Of a stretch of DNA of 64,000 nucleotides, positions 5,544-37,050 are shown one piece after another; within the stretch, counting starts at the first letter, position 1; every line of letters begins with the position of its first letter. The notes below the pieces were generated by a model. It saw only the letters and a list, made by a program, of their open reading frames with translations. It ran no database searches and had not been told where the DNA came from. A program made the position numbers and the translations under genes. Origin of the DNA: Cyanophora paradoxa CCMP329 (Eukaryota; Plantae; Glaucophyta); assembly GCA_004431415.1 (NCBI GenBank), contig QPMI01000127.1, positions 1 through 64,000 on the forward strand, read 5' to 3'.

Positions 5544-6113
5544 CTAGGAGGCCGCGGCCTCCGGCATCCCGATGATGCAATCCGCCTGCTCGCAGGCCGG
5601 CCAGATGCAGCAGCCGGCCGGGATGGGAGCCCCGTCCTGCCCCCCAAGAGCAGCCAGGACAGCGGCAAAATCCTCGGCGTGCAGGGGGAGCTCCCGCTCG
5701 ATGCTGAACGTCTGCGCTGGGATAGGGTAGACCCCGTTGTGCGCATGAAAGACCTCGTAGCACCTGCCGCCACTTTGCGCACGCGGCGACCCAATGGCCA
5801 CTATCGGGTGCGGAGGGGCCGGCAGCGGCTGTTCGTCGACGTGCCGTTCGAGGATGAGTGGGAAGATGGTACCGGCAACGAACGACAGGAGGCAGCCTGT
5901 CCCCGGGATGCGGGCAGGTACGGTCGGCATCTCCTGCACGTCAATGCGGATGGAAAGCTGCTCCCCCGCCCCGGACGACAGCAGCGGCCCGAATGGCCCG
6001 GGGCACCGGCCCACGGCCGGCGCCCCCGTCGGGTGGAAGAGGAGGATGCGGCGGGCCGCCCAGTCGAGCCGGCCGTACAGGTTCGGCAGTGCAAGGACGT
6101 CTGAGTACGACAT
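5544..6113 (-). CDS. hypothetical protein
   Basis: About 190 aa apparently complete ORF with lower-GC upstream spacer. Confidence 0.55.
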   Translation of the reverse strand: MSYSDVLALPNLYGRLDWAARRILLFHPTGAPAVGRCPGPFGPLLSSGAGEQLSIRIDVQEMPTVPARIPGTGCLLSFVAGTIFPLILERHVDEQPLPAPPHPIVAIGSPRAQSGGRCYEVFHAHNGVYPIPAQTFSIERELPLHAEDFAAVLAALGGQDGAPIPAGCCIWPACEQADCIIGMPEAAAS

Positions 6114-6384
6114 CACCGCACGTTAGCGCGCCCCGAAAAAACGTCGCATCTCATCTCATCGCGAGCAAGCTTTAAGACATTTCATACGCGGCGGTACACA
6201 CACTCTGCACCATGTCTTCCGTGCTCGTCCGACCGGGCGCCCTCTCCGCCACCGACAGCTCCCTCCTCGCCGACTCCGTCGAGGTCTCCGGGGCCCTCGG
6301 GACGGCCCGGGTCGAGCGGGCCCCCTACGCGCCCTCCCCCGCCGTGGTGCGGCGCTTCGTGGCCCCCAACGAGCTCGTGCCCGG

Positions 6385-6496
6385 CCAGTGCTGGACGACG
6401 AAGGTTCCGTCCCGCCCCGCCCGCCTGAACTCCTCGATGGTCATGTGGCCCCCGAAGATCTGCAGAGCGTGCCGCGGCGGCGCCGGTCGGAGGGAC
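6385..6496 (-). pseudogene. VLTF2-like late transcription factor, fragment 3 (C-terminal)
   Basis: SLRPAPPRHALQIFGGHMTIEEFRR matches the NCLDV VLTF2 C-terminal motif PAPPR..L..FGG.MTIEEFR. Confidence 0.85.
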
Positions 6497-6844
6497 GTGC
6501 GGCGACGCCTGCGTGGCCGGCGACGAGGGCGGCGGGGCGGGCCAGGCGGCGGCCGGCGGGCCGGGCGGGGCGCGGGCCGGGCGCCGGCGCCGGGCCGGCG
6601 CGCATGGGCGGCGGCGGGGCCGTGGCGACGGGGGGGGTACGCTGGGTAGGGGCTGACGGCGGCCGGTGCCGGCATCGTCGTGCAAAGACACAGCATTCGT
6701 GTCCCAAAATTCGGGCGGCCCGTTAAACGCGCGGCCACGGCCGGGGCGATTTTTTGGACGCCCTCTTCTGTGCGTCGCATGTTCTTCACTGTCCTCGCGG
6801 CAGTGGTGTGCAGCCTGGTTGCAGTGGCAGCGGGGGTAGTCGGC

Positions 6845-7134
6845 ATGACCGCGCAAAGCGAGTACAAGACCCGCTCTGGGAGGGCCGTACGCGCCCCCGA
6901 GCGCTTTGAGCCGCAGGAGCAGGTGGAGGATGATTACGGCGAGGAGGAGCACGACGACGAGAGCATGCACAGCTCAGAAATCAGCTCCGAGATCTCGTTG
7001 GAGAGCGAGGATATGGAGGTCGAGCGGACCATCAGGGAGGAGGAAGGGGGCGAGGACGACGACGGTGACGACTTCATTGTGGAGGATGAGGACGAAGACG
7101 AGGACTACACGGACGAGGATGAGGATGAGGAGGG

Positions 7135-7175
<41 letters not shown>

Positions 7176-7230
7176 GGGAGTCGGAGTCGGAATCGGGGGG
7201 CGGCAAGCCGAAGCGTGCCCGCGCGACCGC
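6845..7230 (+). CDS. conserved NCLDV acidic protein (TRSGR..K/R.PER family)
   Basis: YKTRSGRAVRAPERFEPQEQVEDDYGEEEHD followed by a long D/E tract, partly a (GAT)n microsatellite. Confidence 0.65.
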
Positions 7231-7379
7231 CGCCCGGGCCCGGCCCCCGAGGGGACCACCGGGCTCCCCGTCGTGCGGGACTGGCCCCGCCCGGGCCCGC
7301 CCCCCTCGGGGGGCTCCCTCCTGCGCCTCCACCGGGCTGTCGTGCGTGGCGGCCCCCTTGCGCCGAGCGCAAACCTCTC

Positions 7380-7899
7380 GGCCGCCTCCGTCCGGATCCA
7401 CGGCGCGATCGCCGCCCCCGCCTACGCCCCCGCCCAGGTGCAGGCGCGGCTGGGGCCCCAGCTCTGGCGCCCCTACGATGACCCCGCGCCCGGCACCACC
7501 GCCGCGCTCGCGTGGGACGCCGAGGCCGCCGAGCCGGCCCTCCTCCTGGTGGGGGCGGGGTCGGCCGCCGCGGCCCCTCGCGTCTACTGCTGGGTCGACT
7601 CGGCGCTGCCGAACATGGTGCAGCGCGCGGTGATCACGGGGGCGACGGACCTGTCGCCGGCGCCGGTCCCCGTCGTCGACGCCCCCGTCTCGGGATCGGC
7701 CCGCCCGGAGTGCCTCGCGTGCATGGAGCGCCCCCCAGCGCTGGCCATGATCCCGTGCGGCCACGTCGCCCTCTGCGCCGAGTGCTGGGAGCCCTACGTG
7801 GCCTCGCGCGCCCGGGCCCTCCAGGAGCCCGCCGCCGCCTGCCCCTTCCCCGGCTGCGGCCGGGCCGTCGAGGGGCGCATGGCCGTGATCCTGCCGTGA
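7380..7899 (+). CDS. C3HC4 RING-finger protein, C-terminal fragment
   Basis: CLACMERPPALAMIPCGHVALCAECW...CPFPGC. Confidence 0.8.
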
Positions 7900-8064
7900 T
7901 CATGAGGGCCGGCGCTCGAAGTAGATGCGGAAGTGTTCGTGTTCGTGTGCGAGTGTGCATATACGACGCACCGCGGCCGGCCGGCGGCTCAAGGAGGAGA
8001 TGGACGACATCCTGGGCAACTAACTCTACTGCCACCTCGAGCACTCCCTGCACCTCGCCTGCCA

Positions 8065-8460
8065 GCCGACCAGCAGGCGCGTGAGGCCGGCGTACGCAAG
8101 GTAGTATGGATCATAGAAGGCCTGGAGCGCGCCGGGGTTCTCCACTGCGACATCAATATGGGAAACGTCTGCATTGGTCCAGAGAACCCCCGACTGGACA
8201 TGTCGCGGGCCGTACTGATCGACTTTGATGCATCTCGGTTCAAGGGCGAAGACTACATGGGCAGATACCGCGAGACAGAGCTTGCACTGGTTTGCAGGAG
8301 CGGGGAGACGGAGCTCATCGCAGCTGCCTGCAGCCTCATGTCAGTTGGGTTCGGGGTGTCGCCGACAACGGATCCGGCTAATCCGGATTGGGAACGCGAA
8401 ACGGTGTACCAGGGAACCCGCCCAGCGGTTCTTGGGGCGCTCCAGCGCGCCAACTACAGC
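8065..8460 (+). pseudogene. protein-kinase-like C-lobe fragment
   Basis: LERAGVLHCDINMGNV...VLIDFD (HxD-x4-N and DF motifs). Confidence 0.75.
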
Positions 8461-8862
8461 GTGGAGCAAACAGGTTTTCCCTGCCCCTCCGTGCACCCGT
8501 CCAGGGGGCTGGAGCCCGGGGGGCAGCCGTTGGTGCACGTGCCGTCGGTGGAGCAAACGGGCTTCCCCTGTCCCTCTGCACACCCATCGAGGGGGTTGGA
8601 GCCGGGGGGGCAGCCGTTGGCACACGTGCCGTCGGTGGAACAGATGGCCCCCTCGGAGCATCCATTGAGGGGGTTGGAGCCGGGGGGGCAGAGCTTGCTG
8701 CTATCAGCTGGGGATATCGATGCGTCAGACTCCAAAGTCTGGTCGTCCAGTGCAATCAACCGGTTCGCAATCCCCCCTGATCTGGGATAGATCCGGAGTG
8801 CAAAGACCACCGCGAGCACTATTGCCGCGGCCAGTAAAAAGCCGAGAACTACCGCCTTCATT
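8460..8862 (-). CDS. membrane-anchored Cys-rich repeat protein, N-terminal fragment
   Basis: Signal/TM MKAVVLGFLLAAAIVLAVVFAL then CSTDGTC.NGCPPGS.PLDGC repeats; truncated mid-repeat. Confidence 0.75.
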
Positions 8863-8907
8863 GTAGTCAGTTCTCCTGAGAATATTTTATCTTGCGCACG
8901 GGGCTGT

Positions 8908-9395
8908 TCAGGGTACAAGCTGGGTCACATCGGCGATGAGTTGGAATGAAGTTACTTGCGACCAGTCTGATGTGTAGGTGCGGACCCGAAGCTCGAATTC
9001 ATGCCCCGCCTGGAGTGTAATCATGTGGGGGCCTTGGGGTTTCCAGGTCTTCGCCCTGAGTGCATAGTATCCTAACTGCACTTCTTCGAACCTCTGCGTG
9101 GCACCTGTTGTGCGATTGATGAGCTCGATCATGAAGTTGCTGAAATTTTTGCCGTATTCTTTGAAGCCGATGTCGTATTCGTACTGCAGTGCAGAGCCTG
9201 TTGTCTTCTGCACCCATCGAACCCCGCGAGCTGTAAAAATACCCAGTTCCAGGTTAAACGTGGAGTGGTAGACGCCCGTGTGTCGAACCTTCTCAGCGCA
9301 CCGCAGATTCTCGAGCTTGAACGAATTTGGAGGGCATCCGTTTGCACAGACACCGCCTGGATAAACGCATATCGGGCCCTCCAGGCAGCCCGGCA
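8908..9395 (-). CDS. Cys-rich repeat protein C-terminal fragment with beta-rich domain
   Basis: GCLEGPICVYPGGVCANGCPP then a lower-GC domain ending ADVTQLVP*. Confidence 0.6.
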
Positions 9396-9598
9396 TCTGC
9401 CCGTTGGACGCCGGCAGCACGGCGAGCTGGCTGGGCAGCCGCTCCGGCCCGGAGTAGTAGCAGAAGAGCGGGACGGGCACGGGCATTGGCACACACCGGC
9501 GGCCGACAACAACCTCGCCGGCGGGGACGCGGCGCCGGCCGCGGGGAAAAATTTTTTGTTGCGATCATCACACCTCCTCAAGCGCTCACTGACTACCC

Positions 9599-9892
9599 AT
9601 GCCGCACGCCCGCAAGAAGACGACCAGCCGCCGGCTCGCGACCAGCACCACCGGCCTCTCGCGCCGCACCGTGCTCGGCCACAAGTCCAGGGGCGGCGTT
9701 GCCCTTAAGACCACTGGCGGACTCACCGCCAAGGACCTCACCCGCAACAAGCACGGCGAGATCGTTTCCGTCAAGCGCCGGCGCCACGCCGCCAAGCACC
9801 TGAGCGAGTATAACCGGGCGCTGATCAAGGCGCGCCGCAGGCTCGGGATCACGGGCTTCGTCCCCGTGGGGGCTCGGTTCTATATAGGCTGA
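9599..9892 (+). CDS. DVNP: DVNP (dinoflagellate/viral nucleoprotein) homologue
   Basis: KTTGGLTAKDLTRNKHGEIVSVK core plus KARRRLGITGFVPVG tail; highly basic 97 aa; AT-rich upstream element. Confidence 0.85.
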   Translation: MPHARKKTTSRRLATSTTGLSRRTVLGHKSRGGVALKTTGGLTAKDLTRNKHGEIVSVKRRRHAAKHLSEYNRALIKARRRLGITGFVPVGARFYIG

Positions 9893-10257
9893 ACTGCCTC
9901 TGCTTGTGAGAACATGAATCTAGTGTAGTCCAGTTTCAGTCGACAGCGCCCTGTACTGGACGATCCTCAGCCCGGACGAGATGGATCAAACGAGGCTCAC
10001 CGTGCCCGCAGGGCCGAGGACGGTGTGGCTCGAGACGGTCAGGACGGCCGCCCCGGCCGGCGGGTGGCAGCGGCTTCCGGGCCAGCGCACGGTCATGGAA
10101 ACCGCCCGGGCCCGGCTGCCGCCGCCGGCGCCCCCGAGCGGCGCGAGAAGGCGCTCGTGATCGACCGCCTCGAGCTCGAAGCATCGGAGCAAGGGCTCGG
10201 AGCGCTCGCCAGGATCAACGTGCGCGTCGGGGAGGAGGCGTGGATCCGGGGCACCGT

Positions 10258-10369
10258 CCCCGCAACTTCAGCGGGTTCCGCATCTTCGGTGTCATCGGGC
10301 GGCGCGGCTCCGGGAAGACGACCCTCATGCTCGACCTCATGTACCACTACAGGCACATCGAGTCGGGGG
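10258..10369 (+). pseudogene. A32-like packaging ATPase, fragment 1 (Walker A)
   Basis: RIFGVIGRRGSGKTTLMLDLMYHYRHIESG. Confidence 0.85.
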
Positions 10370-10824
10370 CAGCACCGGTGCCAGGCGCCCTTTGGAAGGT
10401 GATGCGCGCTATCCAGGCGCGCTCTATGGCGGGGTCCCCGAATAGATCCCCATCCTTCCCCAGAAACTCTTTGTCTTGTTCATTCGCGGAATCCAGAAAC
10501 GGCTCCCGGCCCGCCCCCGCACGCACTGCATTGAACAGCCTCAGGATCGTCATAGCCCCCTCGCCGGCATTCTGGAAATCGCGGAAGTTGAACCTCGTAT
10601 CGCCTGACCGGCTGTCCTTGTATCGGACGTAGAGGCGAACCGCCGCTATCTCCTGCTGGACCGTGCGAGCGTCTGCAGTCTTCTGAGCGCTTCCGTCAGC
10701 ACGTAGGGCTCCCTGAAGGACAGGGGGTCATTCCTGCTGCGGCGCACCCCAACGCCCGCGAACCCAATAGCCTTAGCACACTCGGGCGACAAGAAGGTTG
10801 TTGCACCCTGTATTTCCTCCGGCC

Positions 10825-11100
10825 CCGAGGACCTGGGGCGGGACGAGGGACACCGAGCAGCCCATCACGTAGAGCGTCTGGATGTACTGGAGGATCGCCT
10901 CGCGCGACTCGCCGTCCGCCGACGCCCAGAGGCCCGCGACGTCCAGGGAGGCGCCCCCCGCGAACGGAATTGGGGGATAGGACCTGTCGGAGAGGATCTC
11001 GGCGCCCCTTCCGGCCAGGAGCATGTCGCCGTGGGGCTTCAGCGCCTGCACGAAGGCCTGCATAGGGGCGGTGGGGCTGCGCGGCCCGCTTCTGCGCGAA
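10825..11100 (-). pseudogene. conserved NCLDV hypothetical protein, internal fragment
   Basis: LWASADGESREAILQYIQTLYVMGCSVSLVPPQVL resembles the algal-virus motif AxWQYLQTLYMLG...IP. Confidence 0.6.
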
Positions 11101-11359
11101 GTGCCACGAGGGGCTGGGCAAGGGCGGCGACGAAGAGGCGGCCGACGACGACGACAACGGTGGCGGTGAAGAGGAGGAGGAGGAGGGGGAGCATGAGCAG
11201 GAGCCGGCGCCGGCGGCGGGGGCGGACGGCACGGCGCGCCCAAGCCACGATCCGACTGGGGCAGCAGCACCGCCACCGCCGCCACCGCCACCGCTGCCAC
11301 CGCCACCAACGGGCACTGGGCGCCGGAGGCCGCTGCGGGTGGCCAAGGGTTCGGGCTCA

Positions 11360-11539
11360 ATGACAACTGCGGGCTACGGTCGGCTGCTGGGGAGGACTGT
11401 CACGGCCCGCTCGGTCCACCCGGTGATGCCCGAGCTAATCGGGAAGCCCGTGCCAGAGAGCACCGAGCTGCACTGCTGGCACTGTGTGCACGCCTTCAAG
11501 GGGCGGCCCGTCTCGCTCCCGTACCGGCAGGAGCGCGAG
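11360..11539 (+). pseudogene. VLTF2-like late transcription factor, fragment 1
   Basis: PESTELHCWHCVHAFKGRPVSLPY (CWxCxHxF zinc-finger half). Confidence 0.85.
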
Positions 11540-12191
11540 GTCAGGCGGCAGGCAAGGCATGGCGGCGCCCTGAGGCCCCCGCCAGCGCCCCAGACGGCCG
11601 CGGCCGCCCAGATTGCCATCCCGTCGCGCGTGTCGTCGCCGGCCGCCTCCGCCTTGCGCAGGGCCGCCGCCGCCGCGAGCTGATGGCCTCCGTTCTCGGC
11701 GGCCGGCGCCGCCGGGCCGCCCCGATGGCCTTGAGCTCCTTGTTGACGCGGGCGATCTCCAGGCGGGCGCGGGCCTTGGCGACCTCGAGATCGAGGGCAG
11801 CGCGGGCCTTGGCGGCCTCGAGCTCCTGGGCGGCACGCTGGGCCTCGCGCTGGGCCTCGGCCTTGGCGGCCTCGAGCTCCTGCTGGAGGAAGCTGTCGGC
11901 CCGGTGCGCGCGCGCACCGCCCGGTCGGTCCGTCCGCCCGTCCTTCCGTCACTCATGACGTCACACAGGGTCCGCCCTCGCCGTTCGACTCGCTCGACGA
12001 CGCTCCTGCTGCAGGGGATGCCCGACTGGTTCGACGGCGCCGGCGCCGCCATTGCCGTCGGGGCGCACCACGATGCGGTCATGCGGGCGCCCCCGCCGGG
12101 CTCGCTGCAGCCGGTCCCGTTCCACGACGGCGATGGCGGCGCCCCGGCGCCTCCGGTCCCGGGCCTGCCCGGCGCCGGCGCACGGCCGGGC

Positions 12192-12330
12192 CGCGAGCTC
12201 CCGCGCTTCATCTGCATGGGGGTCTTCTGCTCTTGGTCGTGCGCCAAGGCCTACTGCATCACGTCCGGGAGCGTTCACATGCAGCGCGCCCTGTCGTGGC
12301 TCGGGCTCCTCTACCGCCGAACGACGGGCG
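12192..12330 (+). pseudogene. VLTF2-like late transcription factor, fragment 2
   Basis: RFICMGVFCSWSCAKAY...LLYRRTTG (GxFCSWxCxKAY). Confidence 0.85.
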
Positions 12331-12434
12331 AGCAGGGCTCGTTGTCGCCGTCGCAGCCTCTGCCGCCCTCGTGGTGGCCATGGCGGCGACGCTTATGCAC
12401 CTGTGCCGCCGGCAGGGGCGGCGGTGATGGGGCT

Positions 12435-12730
12435 CGCTGCTCCTCGTAGTCCCTGAGGTACTTCATGCTATCCAGGAGCCAGTCGATCTCACCCGACGCC
12501 GCGCGCCGCGCCTCCTCCTCGAGCTCCCGGCGGCGCCCGGCGAGCTCCGCCAGGCGGTCCTTCAGCGCGCGGCGGCCAGGGCCGGCCTGCCCGGCCGACG
12601 CCGCTTGCAGCTGCCCCTGGACATCCTGCATCTCGCGGTCCAGCTGCCGGGCCTCCTCCTGCGCACGCCTCTGCACATCCTCGTAGTTCCGCATCTTCTC
12701 CTCCATGCTAGCGTAGAGGCTTGTCTGGTC
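12435..12730 (-). pseudogene. VLTF3-like late transcription factor, N-terminal coiled-coil fragment
   Basis: Coiled coil ending EIDWLLDSMKYLRDYEEQR, similar to the E.dYLLD.skYifDY motif preceding the VLTF3 zinc ribbon. Confidence 0.55.
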
Positions 12731-13020
12731 GTCACGAACCCGCCGCCGCCTCCGTACTGGACCCTCGTCACGTCGCTGCCTCCGCCACCCGCCCCCCAGA
12801 GCTTGACGGTCGCGCTGGTCACTCCGGCGGGTACGGTCCACGTCTGGTCCGCCCCGGTGTAGCTGAAGATAAGCTTCGTGACGGCCGTGGCGGCGCTCGC
12901 CCCACGGAAGTAGGACATGAGCATGGTGGTGCGGCTCGAGGGGACGCTTGGGGCGTTCGCTGAGGCGCCTACGAAGGAGCCCCCCTTGAAGAGCTGCGAG
13001 AGGTAGACGGGCCCCGTGAT
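12730..13020 (-). CDS. glycine-rich-domain virion/surface protein fragment (paralogue 1)
   Basis: FSYTGADQTWTVPAGVTSATVKLWGAGGGG. Confidence 0.75.
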
Positions 13021-13095
13021 GCGACGGTGACGGTGGCCGCGGCAGTGGGCGCCATGGGCGTGCGTATGTATGTATTGCATGCACTCTGAATAACA

Positions 13096-13362
13096 TCACG
13101 ACGCCGCGTCCGCGCCGGCGCCCGCCCGGGCCCCCGCGCCCAGCGAGATCTCCCCCGTGCCGACCTTGATCGCCGCCGCCAGCATCCCCAGCTCCTCGCG
13201 GGCCTGGGCGGCCATGAACTCCTCGACCAGCGGCGCCAGGGGCGGCGGGAGCGTGGCCCAGACGTCGACGCGCGCCATGAAGGCGTAGGACTCGCCGGCG
13301 CGCCTCTCCTCCAGCACGAAGGTCGGGCGGATGCCGAGGAGCTCGGCGCCGGCCACGGCCAG
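13096..13362 (-). pseudogene. conserved NCLDV hypothetical protein, C-terminal half
   Basis: GAELLGIRPTFVLEE...ATLPPPLAPLVEEFM; appears to continue 34310-34604. Confidence 0.55.
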
Positions 13363-13635
13363 CGCTACGAGGCGGAGGCCGCCGCGGAGTACGAGAGCCG
13401 CTCCGGTCAGATCTGCCTCCAGTTCGGGCTCATCTCCCACCCGGACCCCGAGCTGGCGTGGCTCGGGGGCTCCCCTGACCGCGTCACCCTGGCGGGGCGC
13501 CTGGTCGAGATCAAGTGCCCCTACAAGAGGGCCATCACGCACCAGTGCCCCAAGCACTACTACGGCCAGGTCCAGATCCTTCTCGAGTGCCTCGACCTCG
13601 AGGTCTGCGACTTTGTCCAGTACAGGCCGCCTGCC
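13351..13635 (+). pseudogene. YqaJ-like viral recombinase/alkaline exonuclease, internal fragment
   Basis: HGQRYE...FGLISHP...WLGGSPD...LVEIKCPYKR...HYYGQVQILLECLDLEVCDFVQYRP; startless so missing from the ORF track. Confidence 0.9.
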
Positions 13636-13999
13636 CTCCTCTCGGCCCTGGTCTCCGAGCTCCCGCCGGACGACGCGGCGCAGATCAGCTCGCTCGTGCC
13701 GGTGGGGCTGCGGCTCCAGGAGGCGGTGCGCAGGCAGCGCGAGGAGGTCATCGTGCGCATGGTGGCCGAGCGGCGCGTCCTGGAGCAGCAGGCGGCGGCG
13801 CACGCGGCGCGGGCGGCGGCGGCCGAGAGCAAGCGGGCCTACTACGACGGGCTGCGGCTGCGGAGGAGGGTTCAGGCGGATTCCGAGTCGGATTCGGGTC
13901 CAGAGTCGGAGGAGGATGGGAGTGCCCCCTCGTCGCCCAAGCGGAGGCGTCGCTCGGCAGCCCTGGACACCCGCGCTTCGGAGTAGGAGCTCTGTAAAG

Positions 14000-14270
14000 A
14001 ACACACTAGATTCGAAGACACGAAGACCCCTAGAGACACGACCGCCAAGACTAGATGCGAAAGAGACACGTAGCTAAAGTCAAGACCACCGGTTGCGAGA
14101 GGAGATTGCCAAGACTAGATGCGAAAGAGACACGGAGCTAAAGCCAAGACCACTACTTGCGAGACACGTAGCTAAAGTCAAAAGACCACGGAGATTGCCA
14201 AGACTAGATGCAGACAAGCCACAGCTTCCAAAGACACTACCACAACTGGCTGCTAGACAGCACAGAGAGA
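14000..14270. repeat. A-rich degenerate minisatellite
   Basis: gccaagactagatgcgaaagagacacg(t/g)agctaaag(t/c)caagaccac at about 14044 and 14108, partial copies at 14161 and 14190. Confidence 0.8.
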
Positions 14271-14494
14271 TGCCGGCAGTGGCCTCACGGGTCCTGCGCC
14301 TTCGGATCCGCCGCCCTCTCCTCCCCCCTGAGCCTCGCCAACTCACGGTTCGCGGCATCGAGCTCCTGGCGGAGCCGGAGGATCTCCTCGTCGCGGGGGT
14401 CCGCCGGGGCCGGCGCCATCATCAGCGCCGAGGCGCCCGGACCGGCGCCCGCCGCCGCCGCCGCCGCCGCCTCGGCCGGCGCCGGCGCCATCAT

Positions 14495-14840
14495 CCGCGT
14501 TGCTGCCCGTCCCCTCGCCCGCAGCGCCCCCCGCATCCTGCGTGCCACCTCCTCCTCCGGCGCCGCTGGTACCCCTGGTGCCAAACCCTGTCAGCCCTCC
14601 CGCCCCGCCGCCCTTGGCCGAGCTGTTGCCGCCCGCCCCGCCACCGCCCGCCGTGATCAGATCGGCACCGCCGGAGCGTATGGCCGACCGCCCGCCGCCG
14701 GAGCCAGCGTACTGCGTCCCGTTCATCGCCCGACCGCCCCCGCCATACACCACATTTGCGGCCTGGGTACCCGCCGCGCCAGGCCCACCCACCATGACAG
14801 TGAGGGTCTCTTCCGGGACAAGGGAGAGCACACCGGAAAC
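14495..14840 (-). CDS. glycine-rich-domain protein internal fragment
   Basis: VSGVLSLVPEETLTVMVGG...SGGGRSAIR...DLITAGGGG. Confidence 0.7.
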
Positions 14841-15060
14841 TCCAGCTCCCCGATGAACTCGTCCTGCCTCGCCGTGCTTGCGAGCAGGGGCACGAGCGAG
14901 TCGCTGAATAGGGCCAGCGCGGGCACGACCTGACCGTCCCAGAGCGCCGCGTCGCGCGCCACCTCCTGCACGCACACCGCCCCGCTCCCGTGGTGGTACT
15001 GCACGTGCAGGCCCGTAGGCCGGTCCAGGAGGAAGAGGTAGGCCTGCAGCTGGATCGCTC
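14840..15060 (-). pseudogene. second YqaJ/PD-(D/E)xK-like nuclease, C-terminal fragment
   Basis: IQLQAYLFLLD...VARDAALWDGQVVPAL resembles the Q-x-Q-x-Y and RD..LW motifs. Confidence 0.55.
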
Positions 15061-16714
15061 GACGGCAACGCGTGGACCTCCCCGGCCCCCGGCGGCACCT
15101 TCGAGACGGGCCGCATCTCCCTCTCGACGCGCGGCGACCCGGGCGCCGCTTCGACCTTCGCGGCGTTCCTCGACGAGGCCCTCCCCGACGGGCCGGCGCC
15201 CCTTGCTGGCGTGTACCTCCGCTCCCTCTCGGTCTACTACCAGATCGGCGCCCAGACAGTCCGGGCGGCCCGCGGCCGGGGGCCGTCCTCGGCATGCAGC
15301 TGCGGGCGCTTCTCTCGCACGCGGACCACCTGCGGCAGCTCGCGGGCGAGGGCGGCGGCGGCATGACGGTCGGCCTGGTCGAGCGCTGCCACCTCTCGTC
15401 GCAGGAGGTCTTCGCAGAGTACTGGCACGGGCGCGGCGACCTCTCCGGCCCGGAGCGGGACCTGCTGCGGGAGGCCACCGCTGCCCTCGCGCCCCACGAC
15501 CCCCGGGGCAAACGGGCTTCGGCGGCCGGTCGCCGGCAGCCCGGGCCCCCCCCACCCCGACGACCAGCTCTGGTTCGAGAGGGCCTTCCCTCGCCTGATG
15601 GAGATCGCGAACTACCGCGTCCCGTTCCTCATGGCCAAGCCGGCGCGGCCGCCAAGGCCGCTGTTTGAGTACCCGCCCCGGCCCCCACCGCCCTCTCAGA
15701 GTAGGGTAAGTCTACACGGCATGTCGTCGTCCTCCCGTCAGCAGCTGCTCCGGCCCCAGTCCGCCCCGGCCCCCCGCGGCGCCCGTGGTTCGCATGCACA
15801 TGCCGGAGGCGGCCCCGCGCCCCCGCTCCGGTCCGGGCGCTACGCCCCGCGCGGTGGGGCCGGCGGAGGCCGCCCCCCGCACCCCCCGCATTACATCGAG
15901 GAGTACGACGAGGAGGACATCGAGGGGGACGAGGACGGAGACGACGACGATGATACCTCCTCGATTGGCGGCAGTGACCTGGCGGACGCGTTCCTCGGCG
16001 ACTTCTTCGAGCACGTTCTGACCTCGTCAAAGGGGCCTGTGTCGGCCGCAACGGCCTGGGCCGCCGATGATTGGGCCCGCGGGCTCGCCGACTACCTCGC
16101 CGAGGCCGGCACCGAGGCCGGCATCGACGAGGTCGTCGCCGTTGCCGAGCTCATCGAGAAGTCAAAGGGGGTCGCGTGCTACATCGGGGCGATGTACGCT
16201 GGCTTCGTGAAGGAGGTCAACGGCGGCGGCGGTGCCCCCAAGCCCGCCCAGTCCCAGTAGTATCCCAGCACGCGGTCGCGCCAGGCCCCCGTGTTTCTCT
16301 GCAGTGTGCTGTGTGTGTGTGTGTGTGTGTGTGTGCGTGCAAACAGGCACGGCATGCTGCGGCCCCTCCGCCCCCAGAACCGCACGCTCACCGAGGCCGC
16401 CCTTGATGCCCTGTCGCGGTTCCTTGAGCTCCCGCGCCTCCTCTCCGCATCCCCCGCCATCGAGAGGGAACTGCGTGAATCCGAGGGGAGGCAGAGGAAG
16501 CTCTTCCGGCGCGGGCGGGCCTTCGCCCTCCTCGACGAGTTCAATGACCTCGTCGAGAAGGTCCGCCTCCTGGCGGCGCAGGCAAGTGCCGACTCTGACA
16601 CCGCCCCCCCGGGCCGGATCCACGGGGGGGGTCCGGTGGCTGCCGACGCCGCTGCCCTCTGGGAGCTCGCCCAGTCCGCGTGGCTCCCGAGCACCTTCCG
16701 CCTCCCCCTCGGGC

Positions 16715-17339: not shown

Positions 17340-19116
17340 CGGCCCCGCGCCGGCGCCTGGCGGGGTCCTCGCCCTCCTGGAGAACACGAGGTGGGACCCC
17401 CCTGCCGACGCCCACATGACGTACCAAGAACAGGGCCTCGTCGCGCCCCACGTCGGCGGGAACAGGTACTGGTTCGGCCCCGGGGGGCGGGGCGCTCGCC
17501 GCTTCTTCCACTACCCCGTCGGCCAGCCGCAGGCCCCCCGGTGGGCACCCGGCATCCCCCATGATTTCGCGTATGTAGTCAAGCAGGAGCAGGAGCCGCG
17601 CACGATCAGGATCGACTTCGACGGAGGCATCTTCTCGTCGTTCACCATGGAGCTCTCGGACGATGGCAGCACCCTGACGGTCCCCCGCTCCTGGGTCATC
17701 ACAGGGGACAACAGGCAAGCGGGTTCTCCTCGGCCCCGCCGGGTGGCCCTAGTTTGTTTGTAAATCCGATATATATATTATATATATATATAATACATAC
17801 GAATACACACATACGTAACAGCACGCCCGCCGCCGGCGGGCCCCGGCGCCTAGTCGAATTTTCTAGTGCCTTGCTGGGCAACATGAATGTTCTGCAGGCG
17901 CTCATCGAGGGGCGGGTCCAGGGCACATTGAAAGGGCGCCTTCCGGGCCTGGCCTTTGCTATTGCCCTCGTGGCCGCTGGGAAGATCAACTGGGTCGTCC
18001 TCGACAACCCGCGCTGGCACCGGAGGGGCATAAGGCCGTTCAACAGGAATCAGATCCACTTGATCCTTCTGGGCTTCGGGTACGAGCGCATCGTCGGGGG
18101 CGACGGCACGTGGAGGTACGAATTCTGGGCTCGGGCCCCCCGCATGAGCTTGGACCTGCTCAATCGGCGGGAGGTCGAGGGGCGGTGGCCGAGGGGGACG
18201 GAGTGCCTTCGCGTGCTGTTCTTGAGCACGGTACATCTCTGGGCGGAAGAGTTCTCGCTTCCGGTGCCGCCGTCGGCCGACCCCCCCGTGCCAACCGAAG
18301 ACCCCCAGCGGTTCGACGTCGACGGCTGGCTGGCTCAGGCGTACGGGCTGCCCCCGCTCGGTTGGAATATAGCAACTGCCGTACAGAGTAAGCTCACAAT
18401 TTGGTACGAAGCTGTCCCGGCCCCCGCTGGCCACAGAGTGCCGCGTGCCGACCCGCGGGTCCACGAACGGGGCAACGCGCAGGCCAACTCGATCATGTCA
18501 ATCGTCGCCGCTCGATCGCGCGGTTCACGAGGCGGCACGGGGGGCCGGAGGCGGTAAAGTCTGCGTGCAGGAGCGGAACACGATCGTTCTCCGGCCAGAA
18601 GGGGGTCCGGATCACGCAGTCGCACACTGCGGTTGTTGAGTAGGCGCAACCCCGTGTTGCCGAGGGGCGAGATGCCGATGAGAGGGGTCAGCGCGCCCCG
18701 GAGCCTTGGCTCCATGTTGTTCATAAAGTCGTCGATGCGCAGGAGCGCATTCTCGCACTGGGCCAGCGCCCTCGCCCGGGCCGCCTGGACCAGCGTGCGG
18801 GTCGGCATCTCTAGCACACTGCAGCAGCAGGGAAAAAACGTGTCTCGGGCTTGCGTGGGGGAAGGGGTACAGCAAAACGCGCGCGGACGGACGGTCCGGC
18901 GACGCAAGCGGCCAGCCGCCGTCGATGTGAGTGCTCCCGGGCCCGCATTTGCTCTTCTGACGCATCGGGGCGCCCAGGAAGCGCAGGATGACGCAGCCCG
19001 AGGCCGACCTGTCATCATCATCGCCGCCGGCTGCCGCCGAGCAGGAGCAGCAGCAGCAGCAGCAGCACCCGTGCTGGGGCGGTGGATGAGCCGGCGGCGG
19101 GCGTGCAGGCGGCGGG

Positions 19117-19303
19117 CGAGCCCGTGTCAGGCACCTTCAGCCTAAAGTACCTGCTCTCCTTCACAAGGGCATCCAGCCTCTGCAACTCCGTGGACCTCTA
19201 CTTTGCCCCCCATTTCCCGATCATCGTTGAGTACGCGGTCGCGAACCTCGGCCACCTCAAGTTCTGCCTCGCCCCGCGCCAGGGCGACGTGGACATGGGT
19301 TAG
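19117..19303 (+). pseudogene. PCNA: PCNA sliding clamp, C-terminal fragment
   Basis: GTFSLKYLLSFTRASSLCNSVDLY...FPIIVEYAVANLGHLKFCLAP (NCLDV-type ending). Confidence 0.9.
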
Positions 19304-22401: not shown

Positions 22402-22868
22402 CCCGCCCTGCACCCGGATGGCGGATCGGCCGCCGCCGGACGCGTTCAGAGACCTGGCAGATCCCCAGGTCGTGTAGCCACCACCGCCGTAGACGGCGCT
22501 CCTTGAGCCCGTTCCGTTCCGACCGGCGCTCCCCACGATGAAAACGAGGGTTTCGTCCGGGGTGACGGACAGCGTGCCGGAGACGAAACCCCCGCCCCCG
22601 CCGGTCGAAGGGTTGTAGCCGGAGGCCGATGTCCCCGCGCCCCCCGCCCCCCACAGCTTGACGGTCACGCTGGTCACGCCGGCGGGGACGGTCCACGTCT
22701 GGTCCGCCCCGGTGTGGTTGAAGATGAGCTTCGTGACGGCCGCGGCGGCGCTCGCCCCACGGAAGTAGGACATGAGCATGGTGGTGCGGCTCGAGGGGAC
22801 GCTTGGGGCGTTCGCTGAGACGCCCACGAAGGAGCCCCCCTTGAAGAGCTGCGAGAGGTAGACGGGCC
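22402..22868 (-). CDS. glycine-rich-domain protein fragment (paralogue 2)
   Basis: Near-identical 5' part to 12730-13020 (GPVYLSQLFKGGSFVG...), diverging after KLWGAGG. Confidence 0.75.
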
Positions 22869-36088: not shown

Positions 36089-36541
36089 GGGGGTCATCTT
36101 CTCGCCGACCGAGTCGCCGGCGAACCCCACCTGGGCCAAGCACTGCCCGGGCCTCTTCATCCACTCCGAGTACGACCCCGAGGTCATCCGCGGGATCGTC
36201 AAGAACCAGCAGCGGATCGCCAAGAGCGGCCGCAAGCCCCCCGGCGTCTTCATCGTGCTCGACGACTGCATGTACAACAAGAACGCGATCTCGAACGACA
36301 AGTACCTGCGCTACGTATTCCAGAACGGCCGCCACAACGGGATCCACCTCGTGATCGCGGCCCAGTACCTCATGGACCTCGGCCCCGCCCTCCGCGGCAA
36401 CATCGACGTCATATTCGCCTGCTCCGAGAACAACGACACCACGCGCAAGAAGATCTGGACCAACTTCTTCGGCTATATGGACTACCTCGCCTTCAAGCAG
36501 GTCTTCTCGCAGGTGACGCAGGACTTCGGCGTCCTCGTCGC
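36089..36541 (+). pseudogene. A32-like packaging ATPase, fragment 2 (Walker B, arginine finger)
   Basis: GVIFSPTE...LFIHSEY...FIVLDDCMY...FQNGRH...QYLMDLGPALRGNIDVIF...RKKIWTNFFG...TQDFGVLV; lacks Walker A and the C-terminus. Confidence 0.95.
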
Positions 36542-36639
36542 TGCTGCCAGGCTGGGAGCTCTATCGGGCGAGTGGGGGCCCGGCCCGGTCGGGTGGGCTC
36601 TAATAATTTATTCCCCCCCCCTAAGAAGAAGGGTGGTAT

Positions 36640-37050
36640 AGGGTACTCGCGCGGCACCGACCCGGGCGGCGGCGGGTAGGGGCACCAGTTGTACATCTTC
36701 ATGACATAGATGCTGAATGCCGGGTCGAGCTGGATCAACTGCTTGGCATGCGCCTGGGCCTCCTCGACCGTCGCGAAGGCGCCGCGAATCTTGAAGGCGA
36801 AGGTGCTTCCCTTCTGCGTCCCAGGGATGTGCGCATCCTCGGGGGTGACAACCGATACGAGGGCGTACTGCAGGCCGGGGACCTCGATCGGGTCCGGCAC
36901 GGGCCGCACGCGGACGCCGGGCCCGGTGGGCTTTGGCTCCGGGAAGTTGGCCTCCGGCCTCACGTCCACCCCCGTCGCCTCACGGAGCATCTCCATGGCG
37001 GCGCCGGGGGGCAGGAAATCCTGGGAAGTGCCGTCGTCGCCGCCGCTCAT
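36640..37050 (-). pseudogene. DUF5832 conserved NCLDV protein, N-terminal fragment
   Basis: VPGLQYALVSVVTPE...FKIRGAFATVEEAQAHAKQL...DPAFSIYVMKMYNW. Confidence 0.8.

Follow-up and report, generated by a model that had tools for sequence, protein, structure and literature searches.

The window, by which we mean the whole stretch of 64,000 nucleotides that was analysed, contains a DVNP gene that was cut by a repeat and lies amid broken giant-virus genes. Taken together, the data make it probable that this gene sits in giant-virus DNA integrated in the nuclear genome of an alga, and that it no longer works. DVNPs form a family of small basic proteins that replace histones in dinoflagellates. The DVNP of the window shares features with the dinoflagellate proteins, and is likely a viral relic, not a missing link between viruses and dinoflagellates.

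The gene was found at positions 9599-9892 of the forward strand, as an open reading frame (ORF) that runs from ATG to stop and encodes 97 amino acids with a pI of 12 and a strong excess of positive charge (24 K+R versus 3 D+E). Its product scored 48 bits with the DVNP profile of Pfam (PF19060; cut-off 25 bits; E = 1.7e-12), with residues 33-86 aligned to positions 10-67 of the 77 profile positions. The top clusters in the Atlas were all DVNPs as well (viral clusters, score 0.92). A preliminary description of this DNA had called the product a viral DVNP, and this name holds. The GGL..DL..N..G.IVS core and the KARRRLGITGFVPVG stretch, which had been put forward as core motif and tail, were both present in the ORF product. 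As judged from its sequence, the ORF encodes a true DVNP that is newly added to the known family. The features of the gene and its immediate surroundings are:

9547..9557, forward strand: A5-T6 run, about 45 bases 5' of the ATG and the only A4+T4+ run of the window.
9599..9872, forward strand: the part of the DVNP gene that is of viral origin, spanning codons 1-91 and one further base, recognised by PF19060, the structure model, a GC3 of 0.93 and a single-level depth.
9809..9871, forward strand: tail module, residues 71-91, consisting of the helix end, GxTGF and VPVG.
9873..9941, no strand assigned: piece of a multi-copy repeat, 69 bp, recognised by depth and a GC of 0.45; it gives residues 92-97 and the stop codon at 9890-9892.
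9942..10160, forward strand: open frame 3' of the repeat, in another frame than the DVNP ORF, with a GC3 of 0.92 and a SALY motif at its start.

The viral part of the gene is laid out as a short basic N-terminus, a core at about residues 20-62, a long helix in the model and the sequence GITGFVPVG. Codons 1-91 have a GC3 of 93%, and the A5-T6 run upstream is possibly a remnant of a viral promoter. The N-terminus comprises about 20 residues, is rich in Ser and Thr, and has 2 K and 3 R. No MK-repeat or S.I[AG].G motif was found in it, and it forms no Lys-rich extension of the kind that a passage in PMC6723414 describes as a trait of dinoflagellate DVNPs.

The structure predicted with 55 relatives (mean pLDDT 79.8) has its long helix at residues 58-82. 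The best four fold matches to this model were viral proteins of 80-100 amino acids (E = 0.001-0.011), one of which belongs to Feldmannia species virus. Phaeoviruses that encode a DVNP are found integrated in the genomes of brown algae. Searches with the window DVNP gave no relative among solved structures, no match in the phage collection, and only the self-match among five candidates in a word-based protein search. Scans with the same protein yielded distant loci only (two viral, four metagenome).

The preliminary description had listed the gene as apparently intact, and this does not hold. In DNA run X1 the summed contig depth was 67.6 over positions 9550-9872, 780-1660 over positions 9873-9940, and 58.1 after that, so that depth over the repeat was up to about 25 times the depth of its flanks. 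Run X21, in which the locus is absent, has 9873-9941 as well, with a single mismatch and surrounded by other sequence. Furthermore, the repeat has a GC of 45%, against 93% GC at the third positions of codons 1-91. The jump in depth, the other flanks in run X21 and the contrast in GC imply that the last six residues (92-97) and the stop codon were supplied by the repeat, and that the last helix of the DVNP family is absent because of this insertion. Indeed, the profile match stops at position 67 and does not reach the full C-terminal module with its final helix, which runs to position 77; the relatives P0003 and P0108 extend to positions 75-76. An Rfam search around the repeat gave no match.

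The last full codon 5' of the repeat encodes G91. The break falls inside the loop that follows GFxx[VI]. In the dinoflagellate type this loop is long and opened by GG; in the window DVNP a single G, which may be the first of such a pair, is all that is left of it. A short loop was found in 113 of the 115 DVNPs of one profile-ranked set of eukaryote-transcript DVNPs. The SALY start of the open frame 3' of the repeat resembles the onset of the family's last helix, with a four-column score of 12.0 bits compared to a median of 11.3 for true tails. The chance of such a start is about 0.001 for 24 starts, for a motif that was picked after it had been noticed. Over ten columns the same frame reached only 4.2, where true tails have a 5th percentile of 5.7, and searches of the frame against Pfam and the Atlas gave no match. 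Either the DVNP gene lost its end to this frame when the repeat came in, or the frame belongs to a different gene.

The window has a GC of about 70% throughout. Pfam scans of it covered 346 frames, and a comparison was made with 2147 ORFs from viral loci. Several pieces of viral genes were found, all of which match proteins from viral contigs:

10258..10374, forward strand: N-terminal (Walker A) piece of a packaging ATPase, 51-54% identical to ATPases of viral contigs.
13342..13629, forward strand: piece of a YqaJ-like viral recombinase, matching viral proteins.
19112..19291, forward strand: C-terminal piece of PCNA, matching viral proteins.
36093..36551, forward strand: C-terminal piece of the packaging ATPase, 40-43% identical to its relatives, 25.7 kb away from the first piece and adjoining DUF5832.
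36631..36897, reverse strand: piece of DUF5832, a giant-virus family, matching viral proteins.

We take the two ATPase pieces to be parts of an A32-like giant-virus packaging ATPase. Since the ATPase piece is 40-43% identical to all relatives compared, this gene does not place the virus. No polymerase or capsid gene was found in the 346 frames scanned against Pfam, and a PHROGs scan of 37 frames gave nothing beyond the recombinase. The window thus holds a cluster of Nucleocytoviricota genes, and their decay is visible in split and partial genes.

Several other sequences were seen in the same region. Two separate pieces with CxxC motifs that resemble a viral late transcription factor lie at 6400-6483 (reverse strand) and at about 11400-12300 (forward strand); one of them matched viral ORFs. 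An open frame of 208 amino acids at 7273-7899 (forward strand) encodes a C3HC4 RING finger that scored above the Pfam cut-off. A duplicate of 231 bp with 95% identity (12783-13013 and 22638-22868) covers the start of a gene with a glycine-rich domain.

Contigs of both of the two DNA runs compared match positions 6000-16000, with no differing letters and two single gaps; these runs may be the source DNA. Because this part is repeated in independent short-read contigs, most of the gene breaks are real. Assembly error as the origin of the broken genes was ruled out by these matching contigs over 6000-16000. The stretch is present in 20 DNA runs with one organism label and about 100-120 million contig letters, all of which may be source DNA. 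CpG showed no depletion (observed/expected = 1.04), and no junction between virus and host was seen in the window. The ATPase piece of the window matched a protein of the eukaryote catalogue at 99%. A second such protein, on another contig, matched at 83% and suggests a second insertion.

The window is likely a decayed giant-virus stretch that is integrated in the nuclear genome of a high-GC alga. Giant-virus insertions, enriched in methylated genes, have been reported for the glaucophyte Cyanophora paradoxa in PMC12344493. The main text of that paper contains no mention of DVNP, and our search of the literature on DVNP and endogenous giant viruses found no report of this gene.

The frame of the DVNP gene is open from the ATG through residue 91 while its neighbours are broken, and the truncated DVNP could conceivably still be a working protein. 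The host might have kept it as such, in a role in its chromatin. The open 91 viral codons with their own ATG, the AT-rich run upstream, and the presence of the stretch in 20 DNA runs, if these are more than source DNA, would fit this idea. Yet a frame of 273 bases at 93% GC3 would easily be open by chance, and other short frames nearby are open too, including the RING-finger ORF. A second copy of the DVNP at 88% likeness was not found in DNA run X1. Moreover, a passage in PMC6723414 describes a toxic effect of DVNP on the nucleosome-based chromatin of yeast, and endogenous giant-virus genes are described in PMC12344493 as mostly methylated and silent. We therefore regard retention by the host as very unlikely; today, the window DVNP is probably a silent relic. 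No RNA run was listed among those with the stretch, and two runs presumed to be RNA gave no contigs over the gene, which speaks neither for nor against its expression.

The preliminary description had also likened the protein to dinoflagellate DVNPs, and it does resemble them more than most viral DVNPs do. We calculated local alignment scores for residues 36-91. The best scores were 150 for P0003, up to 148 for marine eukaryote-transcript proteins, and 109 for the best of 78 viral-locus proteins. P0003, which comes from a 36-kb contig, was also the closest of 113 hits at 50% clustering; 2 of the 112 non-self hits (P0004 and P0011) were removed as spurious before counts were made. A scan of viral contigs with P0003 found no match, and both P0003 and P0080 are unplaced proteins. 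Three look-ups of protein clusters yielded no dinoflagellate species by name.

A scan of viral contigs for the core motif of the window DVNP, made independently of the tail, found at least 120 loci with 99 distinct DVNPs. Among the matches listed, none of these 99 viral proteins, all of which share the core motif, had the tail of the window DVNP. This implies that such a core together with such a tail is uncommon in viruses. The same pairing of core and tail does occur in dinoflagellate-type proteins, a set of 40 proteins that were labelled by N-terminal motifs and not by named organisms. Both the pattern of the scores and the lack of this pairing among the listed viral matches imply that the window DVNP is indeed more dinoflagellate-like than most viral DVNPs.

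Residues of the core, however, are of the viral type. At the G.A.KT position, the window DVNP has A, like 14 of 15 viral rows, whereas 35 of 40 dinoflagellate-type rows have K or R. Before the first V it has S-R, as in viral rows, instead of the dinoflagellate-type A-K. These S-R and A residues are common to 13 and 14 of the 15 viral rows, respectively. At these three columns of the N-core, 28, 27 and 35 of the 40 dinoflagellate-type rows differ from the window DVNP. The highest core identity (66% over 41 columns) was to L203, a viral DVNP without the tail. Eight proteins of the collection (P0010, P0013, P0018, P0026, P0027, P0071, P0081, P0083), some of them marine eukaryote transcripts, have K/R-rich N-termini and a viral-like N-core, and branch apart from the dinoflagellate-type set.

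According to the preliminary description, the DVNPs of algal viruses lack a clear tail of this kind. This was contradicted by Yellowstone Lake phycodnaviruses 1, 2 and 3, whose four rows show the helix followed by [GK]IK(G)F and a last helix, and by a tail-only pattern that found 89 stretches in viral contigs, every locus having a match to the DVNP profile. Helix plus GxxGF was present in 71 of the 78 distinct proteins from viral loci L001-L115, which is not a frequency because this set had been selected for the tail. Of these 71 proteins, 56 had the phycodnavirus form, 11 had a short loop resembling KKG, and 4 had N[KR]G. Tails of the form AR[K]ELGITGF were also present in L012 and L017, two viral DVNPs of full length. 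In the published alignment (PMC11953307, supplement 5), at least 8 of about 547 marine viral rows were of the tail type, as counted by a string search on the gapped file with viral rows recognised by their headers, and the phaeovirus rows of the alignment have a diverged version of the tail. Hence the tail is a well-established minority type in viruses. Two observations together would have refuted the preliminary reading, namely a tail common in known viral DVNPs and a sequence nested among them; this refutation is borne out in part, by the established viral tail and by the nesting of the core among viral sequences.

The occurrence of helix plus GxxGF in these viral-locus proteins and in named viruses means that the tail is not diagnostic of dinoflagellates. 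The term "dinoflagellate-style" used for it earlier is apt insofar as the same helix and G.TGFVPVG ending is found in DVNP.10 of Hematodinium (PMC11953307, supplement 5), but the tail is not a dinoflagellate signature. Over its 21 residues, the tail of the window DVNP had 12/21 identities with the best viral match and just as many with the best match of the dinoflagellate type. Its profile odds were 5.2 bits (log2) toward the dinoflagellate type with the G91 column, and 1.0 (5-95% range, -1.9 to 3.7) without this column. After GFxxV, a G was found in 23 of 40 dinoflagellate-type rows and in none of the 78 viral-locus proteins; when viral contigs were scanned directly for that G, only two matches came up, both unrelated. 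On these profiles, the dinoflagellate lean of the tail is due to one glycine, G91, which abuts the repeat. From its distribution, we infer that the tail (helix-GxxGF-helix) moves as a module and is common to several virus groups and dinoflagellates.

The two parts of the protein were also seen in other arrangements. At eight loci (L014, L019, L022, L023, L025, L026, L027, L096), the tail alone was attached to low-complexity proteins that are rich in K/S/R or in Q and in some cases have SPKK repeats. On viral contigs of 160 kb, it alone closed proteins of 180 amino acids whose N-termini are hydrophobic and membrane-like (L018:3590-4126, L024:3566-4120). Conversely, L007-L010 have a tail-less DVNP core at the C-terminus of viral proteins of 456-480 amino acids. 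In P0002, P0043, P0056, P0102 and P0109, either the DVNP unit or the tail module is doubled. Directly 3' of a prasinovirus-type DVNP lies a separate ORF of 50 amino acids (L001:3236-3388; also in L002, L116 and L117), which weakly resembles the tail module (E = 0.002 for the profile, in a search of few sequences) and has no match in Pfam. Two halves of a dinoflagellate-like protein may exist as neighbouring genes in loci of the L001 type.

Trees were calculated from subsamples of 128 (quick tree), 61 and 68 rows, with residues 1-91 only of the window DVNP. The 61-row tree had 86 columns. The core-only tree had 68 rows and 44 columns, with 15 tail-less viral rows added. P0109, which consists of the tail only, was left out. 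The window DVNP grouped with P0003 and P0080 with a support of 99/91 in the 86-column tree and 99/90 in the core-only tree, and the quick tree gave the same grouping; the bootstraps had not settled. With the tail included, the window DVNP joined the dinoflagellate-type clade before any viral-contig row in 634 of 1000 bootstrap trees, versus 0 of 1000 with the core alone. This implies that its closeness to dinoflagellates comes from the tail. In the core-only tree the nearest labelled rows were viral, and the core thus nests among viral sequences. Nesting of the window DVNP within the dinoflagellate-type clade was seen in 0 of 1000 trees with the tail and in 58 of 1000 with the core alone, on few columns and motif-labelled sequences.

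The trees bear on the suggestion that this virus is close to the donor lineage of the dinoflagellate gene. An under-sampled virus lineage, with P0003, P0080 and perhaps P0108 and P0093, could be the closest viral relative of the gene captured by dinoflagellates; an NKHG-type core and a helix-GxxGF tail with a G-opened loop would then have been inherited together, and the gene would be a broken but informative relic. The 634 trees with the tail speak for this suggestion, as do the AU test, in which the window DVNP and the dinoflagellate type as one side were not rejected (p = 0.367), the core-tail pairing that occurs in dinoflagellate-type proteins and in none of the 99 same-core viral DVNPs among the matches listed, and the odds obtained with G91. 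The published tree of PMC11953307 has dinoflagellate DVNPs nested among Imitervirales. Against it stand the absence of this grouping from all 1000 core-only trees, the core identity to the tail-less L203, the similar tails of L012 and L017, the drop in the odds without the glycine that abuts the repeat, and a support of only 35/76 for the branch that joins the window DVNP group to the dinoflagellate side. Given the few columns and unsettled bootstraps, the suggestion is open but unsupported, and we consider it unlikely. It is equally doubtful that a giant-virus lineage of freshwater algae, represented by the fossil in the window and by unplaced metagenome proteins such as P0003, has the architecture of core and tail that dinoflagellates captured and is the nearest viral relative of the nucleosome-replacing gene, with a protein built from two modules that move separately.

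Re-acquisition of the gene by the virus from a dinoflagellate host, before integration, had been offered as another possibility. The likeness of the tail to that of Hematodinium DVNP.10 would agree with such a transfer, and so would the exact GFVPVG, which was found in 7 of 110 collection hits versus 0 of 78 viral-locus proteins. The long Lys-rich N-terminus is missing, however, and the GC3 of 0.93 agrees with the high-GC element. The viral-type core residues and the position in the trees, inside the dinoflagellate-type clade in only 0 and 58 of 1000 cases, make a dinoflagellate origin very unlikely.

A viral relic, cut by a repeat, is the reading that we prefer. In the live virus, this small and strongly basic protein would have bound DNA, if it resembled other members of its family. 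Its core hairpin and long helix may have coated DNA and packed the genome in the particle, and it possibly displaced host nucleosomes. DVNP has been found in the virions of PkV RF02 (PMC11953307), and DNA binding and nucleosome displacement by DVNP in yeast are summarised in PMC6723414. The virus probably combined the helix-GxxGF-helix tail with an NKHG-type core, and such a core with a shared tail gives a dinoflagellate-like look without descent from a dinoflagellate gene. Once integrated, the element would have decayed, and a fragment of a repeat inserted in the tail loop would have left an open frame with an early end.

For tracing the source virus of the dinoflagellate DVNP, the C-terminal tail is unusable as a marker, because it is a module that various virus groups have, be it by itself, in duplicate or joined to other proteins. 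The window DVNP, P0003 and P0080 have the dinoflagellate-like pairing of core and tail, and merit a place in the next family tree. Further named DVNPs are given in supplements of bioRxiv 10.1101/2024.02.09.579734. According to PMC6723414 and PMC11953307, eukaryotes other than dinoflagellates lack DVNP; a copy in the genome of another alga would be a minor exception to this, namely a broken passenger of viral origin.

Compared to known systems, the window DVNP shares its core motif and the helix plus G.[TK]GF tail with PF19060 and with DVNP.5, DVNP.10 and DVNP.13 of Hematodinium, as far as these are given in the published supplement. It differs from them by its viral-type core residues, a short N-terminus, an N-core that is longer by six residues, a Y in place of the conserved W71, the missing final helix, and its occurrence as a single copy amid viral genes. 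The DVNPs of Yellowstone Lake phycodnaviruses 1-3 and related 80-aa DVNPs of viral contigs likewise have a helix plus GIKGF tail, followed by the last helix. However, their core is without NKHG, their loop reads AL[VI]xG, and at most 10 of 21 tail residues are identical to those of the window DVNP. Conversely, viral DVNPs with an NKHG.IVS.K core (Imitervirales type, e.g. the Yellowstone Lake mimivirus row) share the core, with up to 66% identity, but most of them have a short tail of the form L.K.G[YF]..KKG.F or terminate early, unlike the window DVNP. As a whole, the window resembles the endogenous giant viruses (GEVEs) described in PMC12344493, including those of Cyanophora paradoxa, in that genes of a giant virus lie clustered and decayed in the assembly of a eukaryote, and have been invaded by a repeat.
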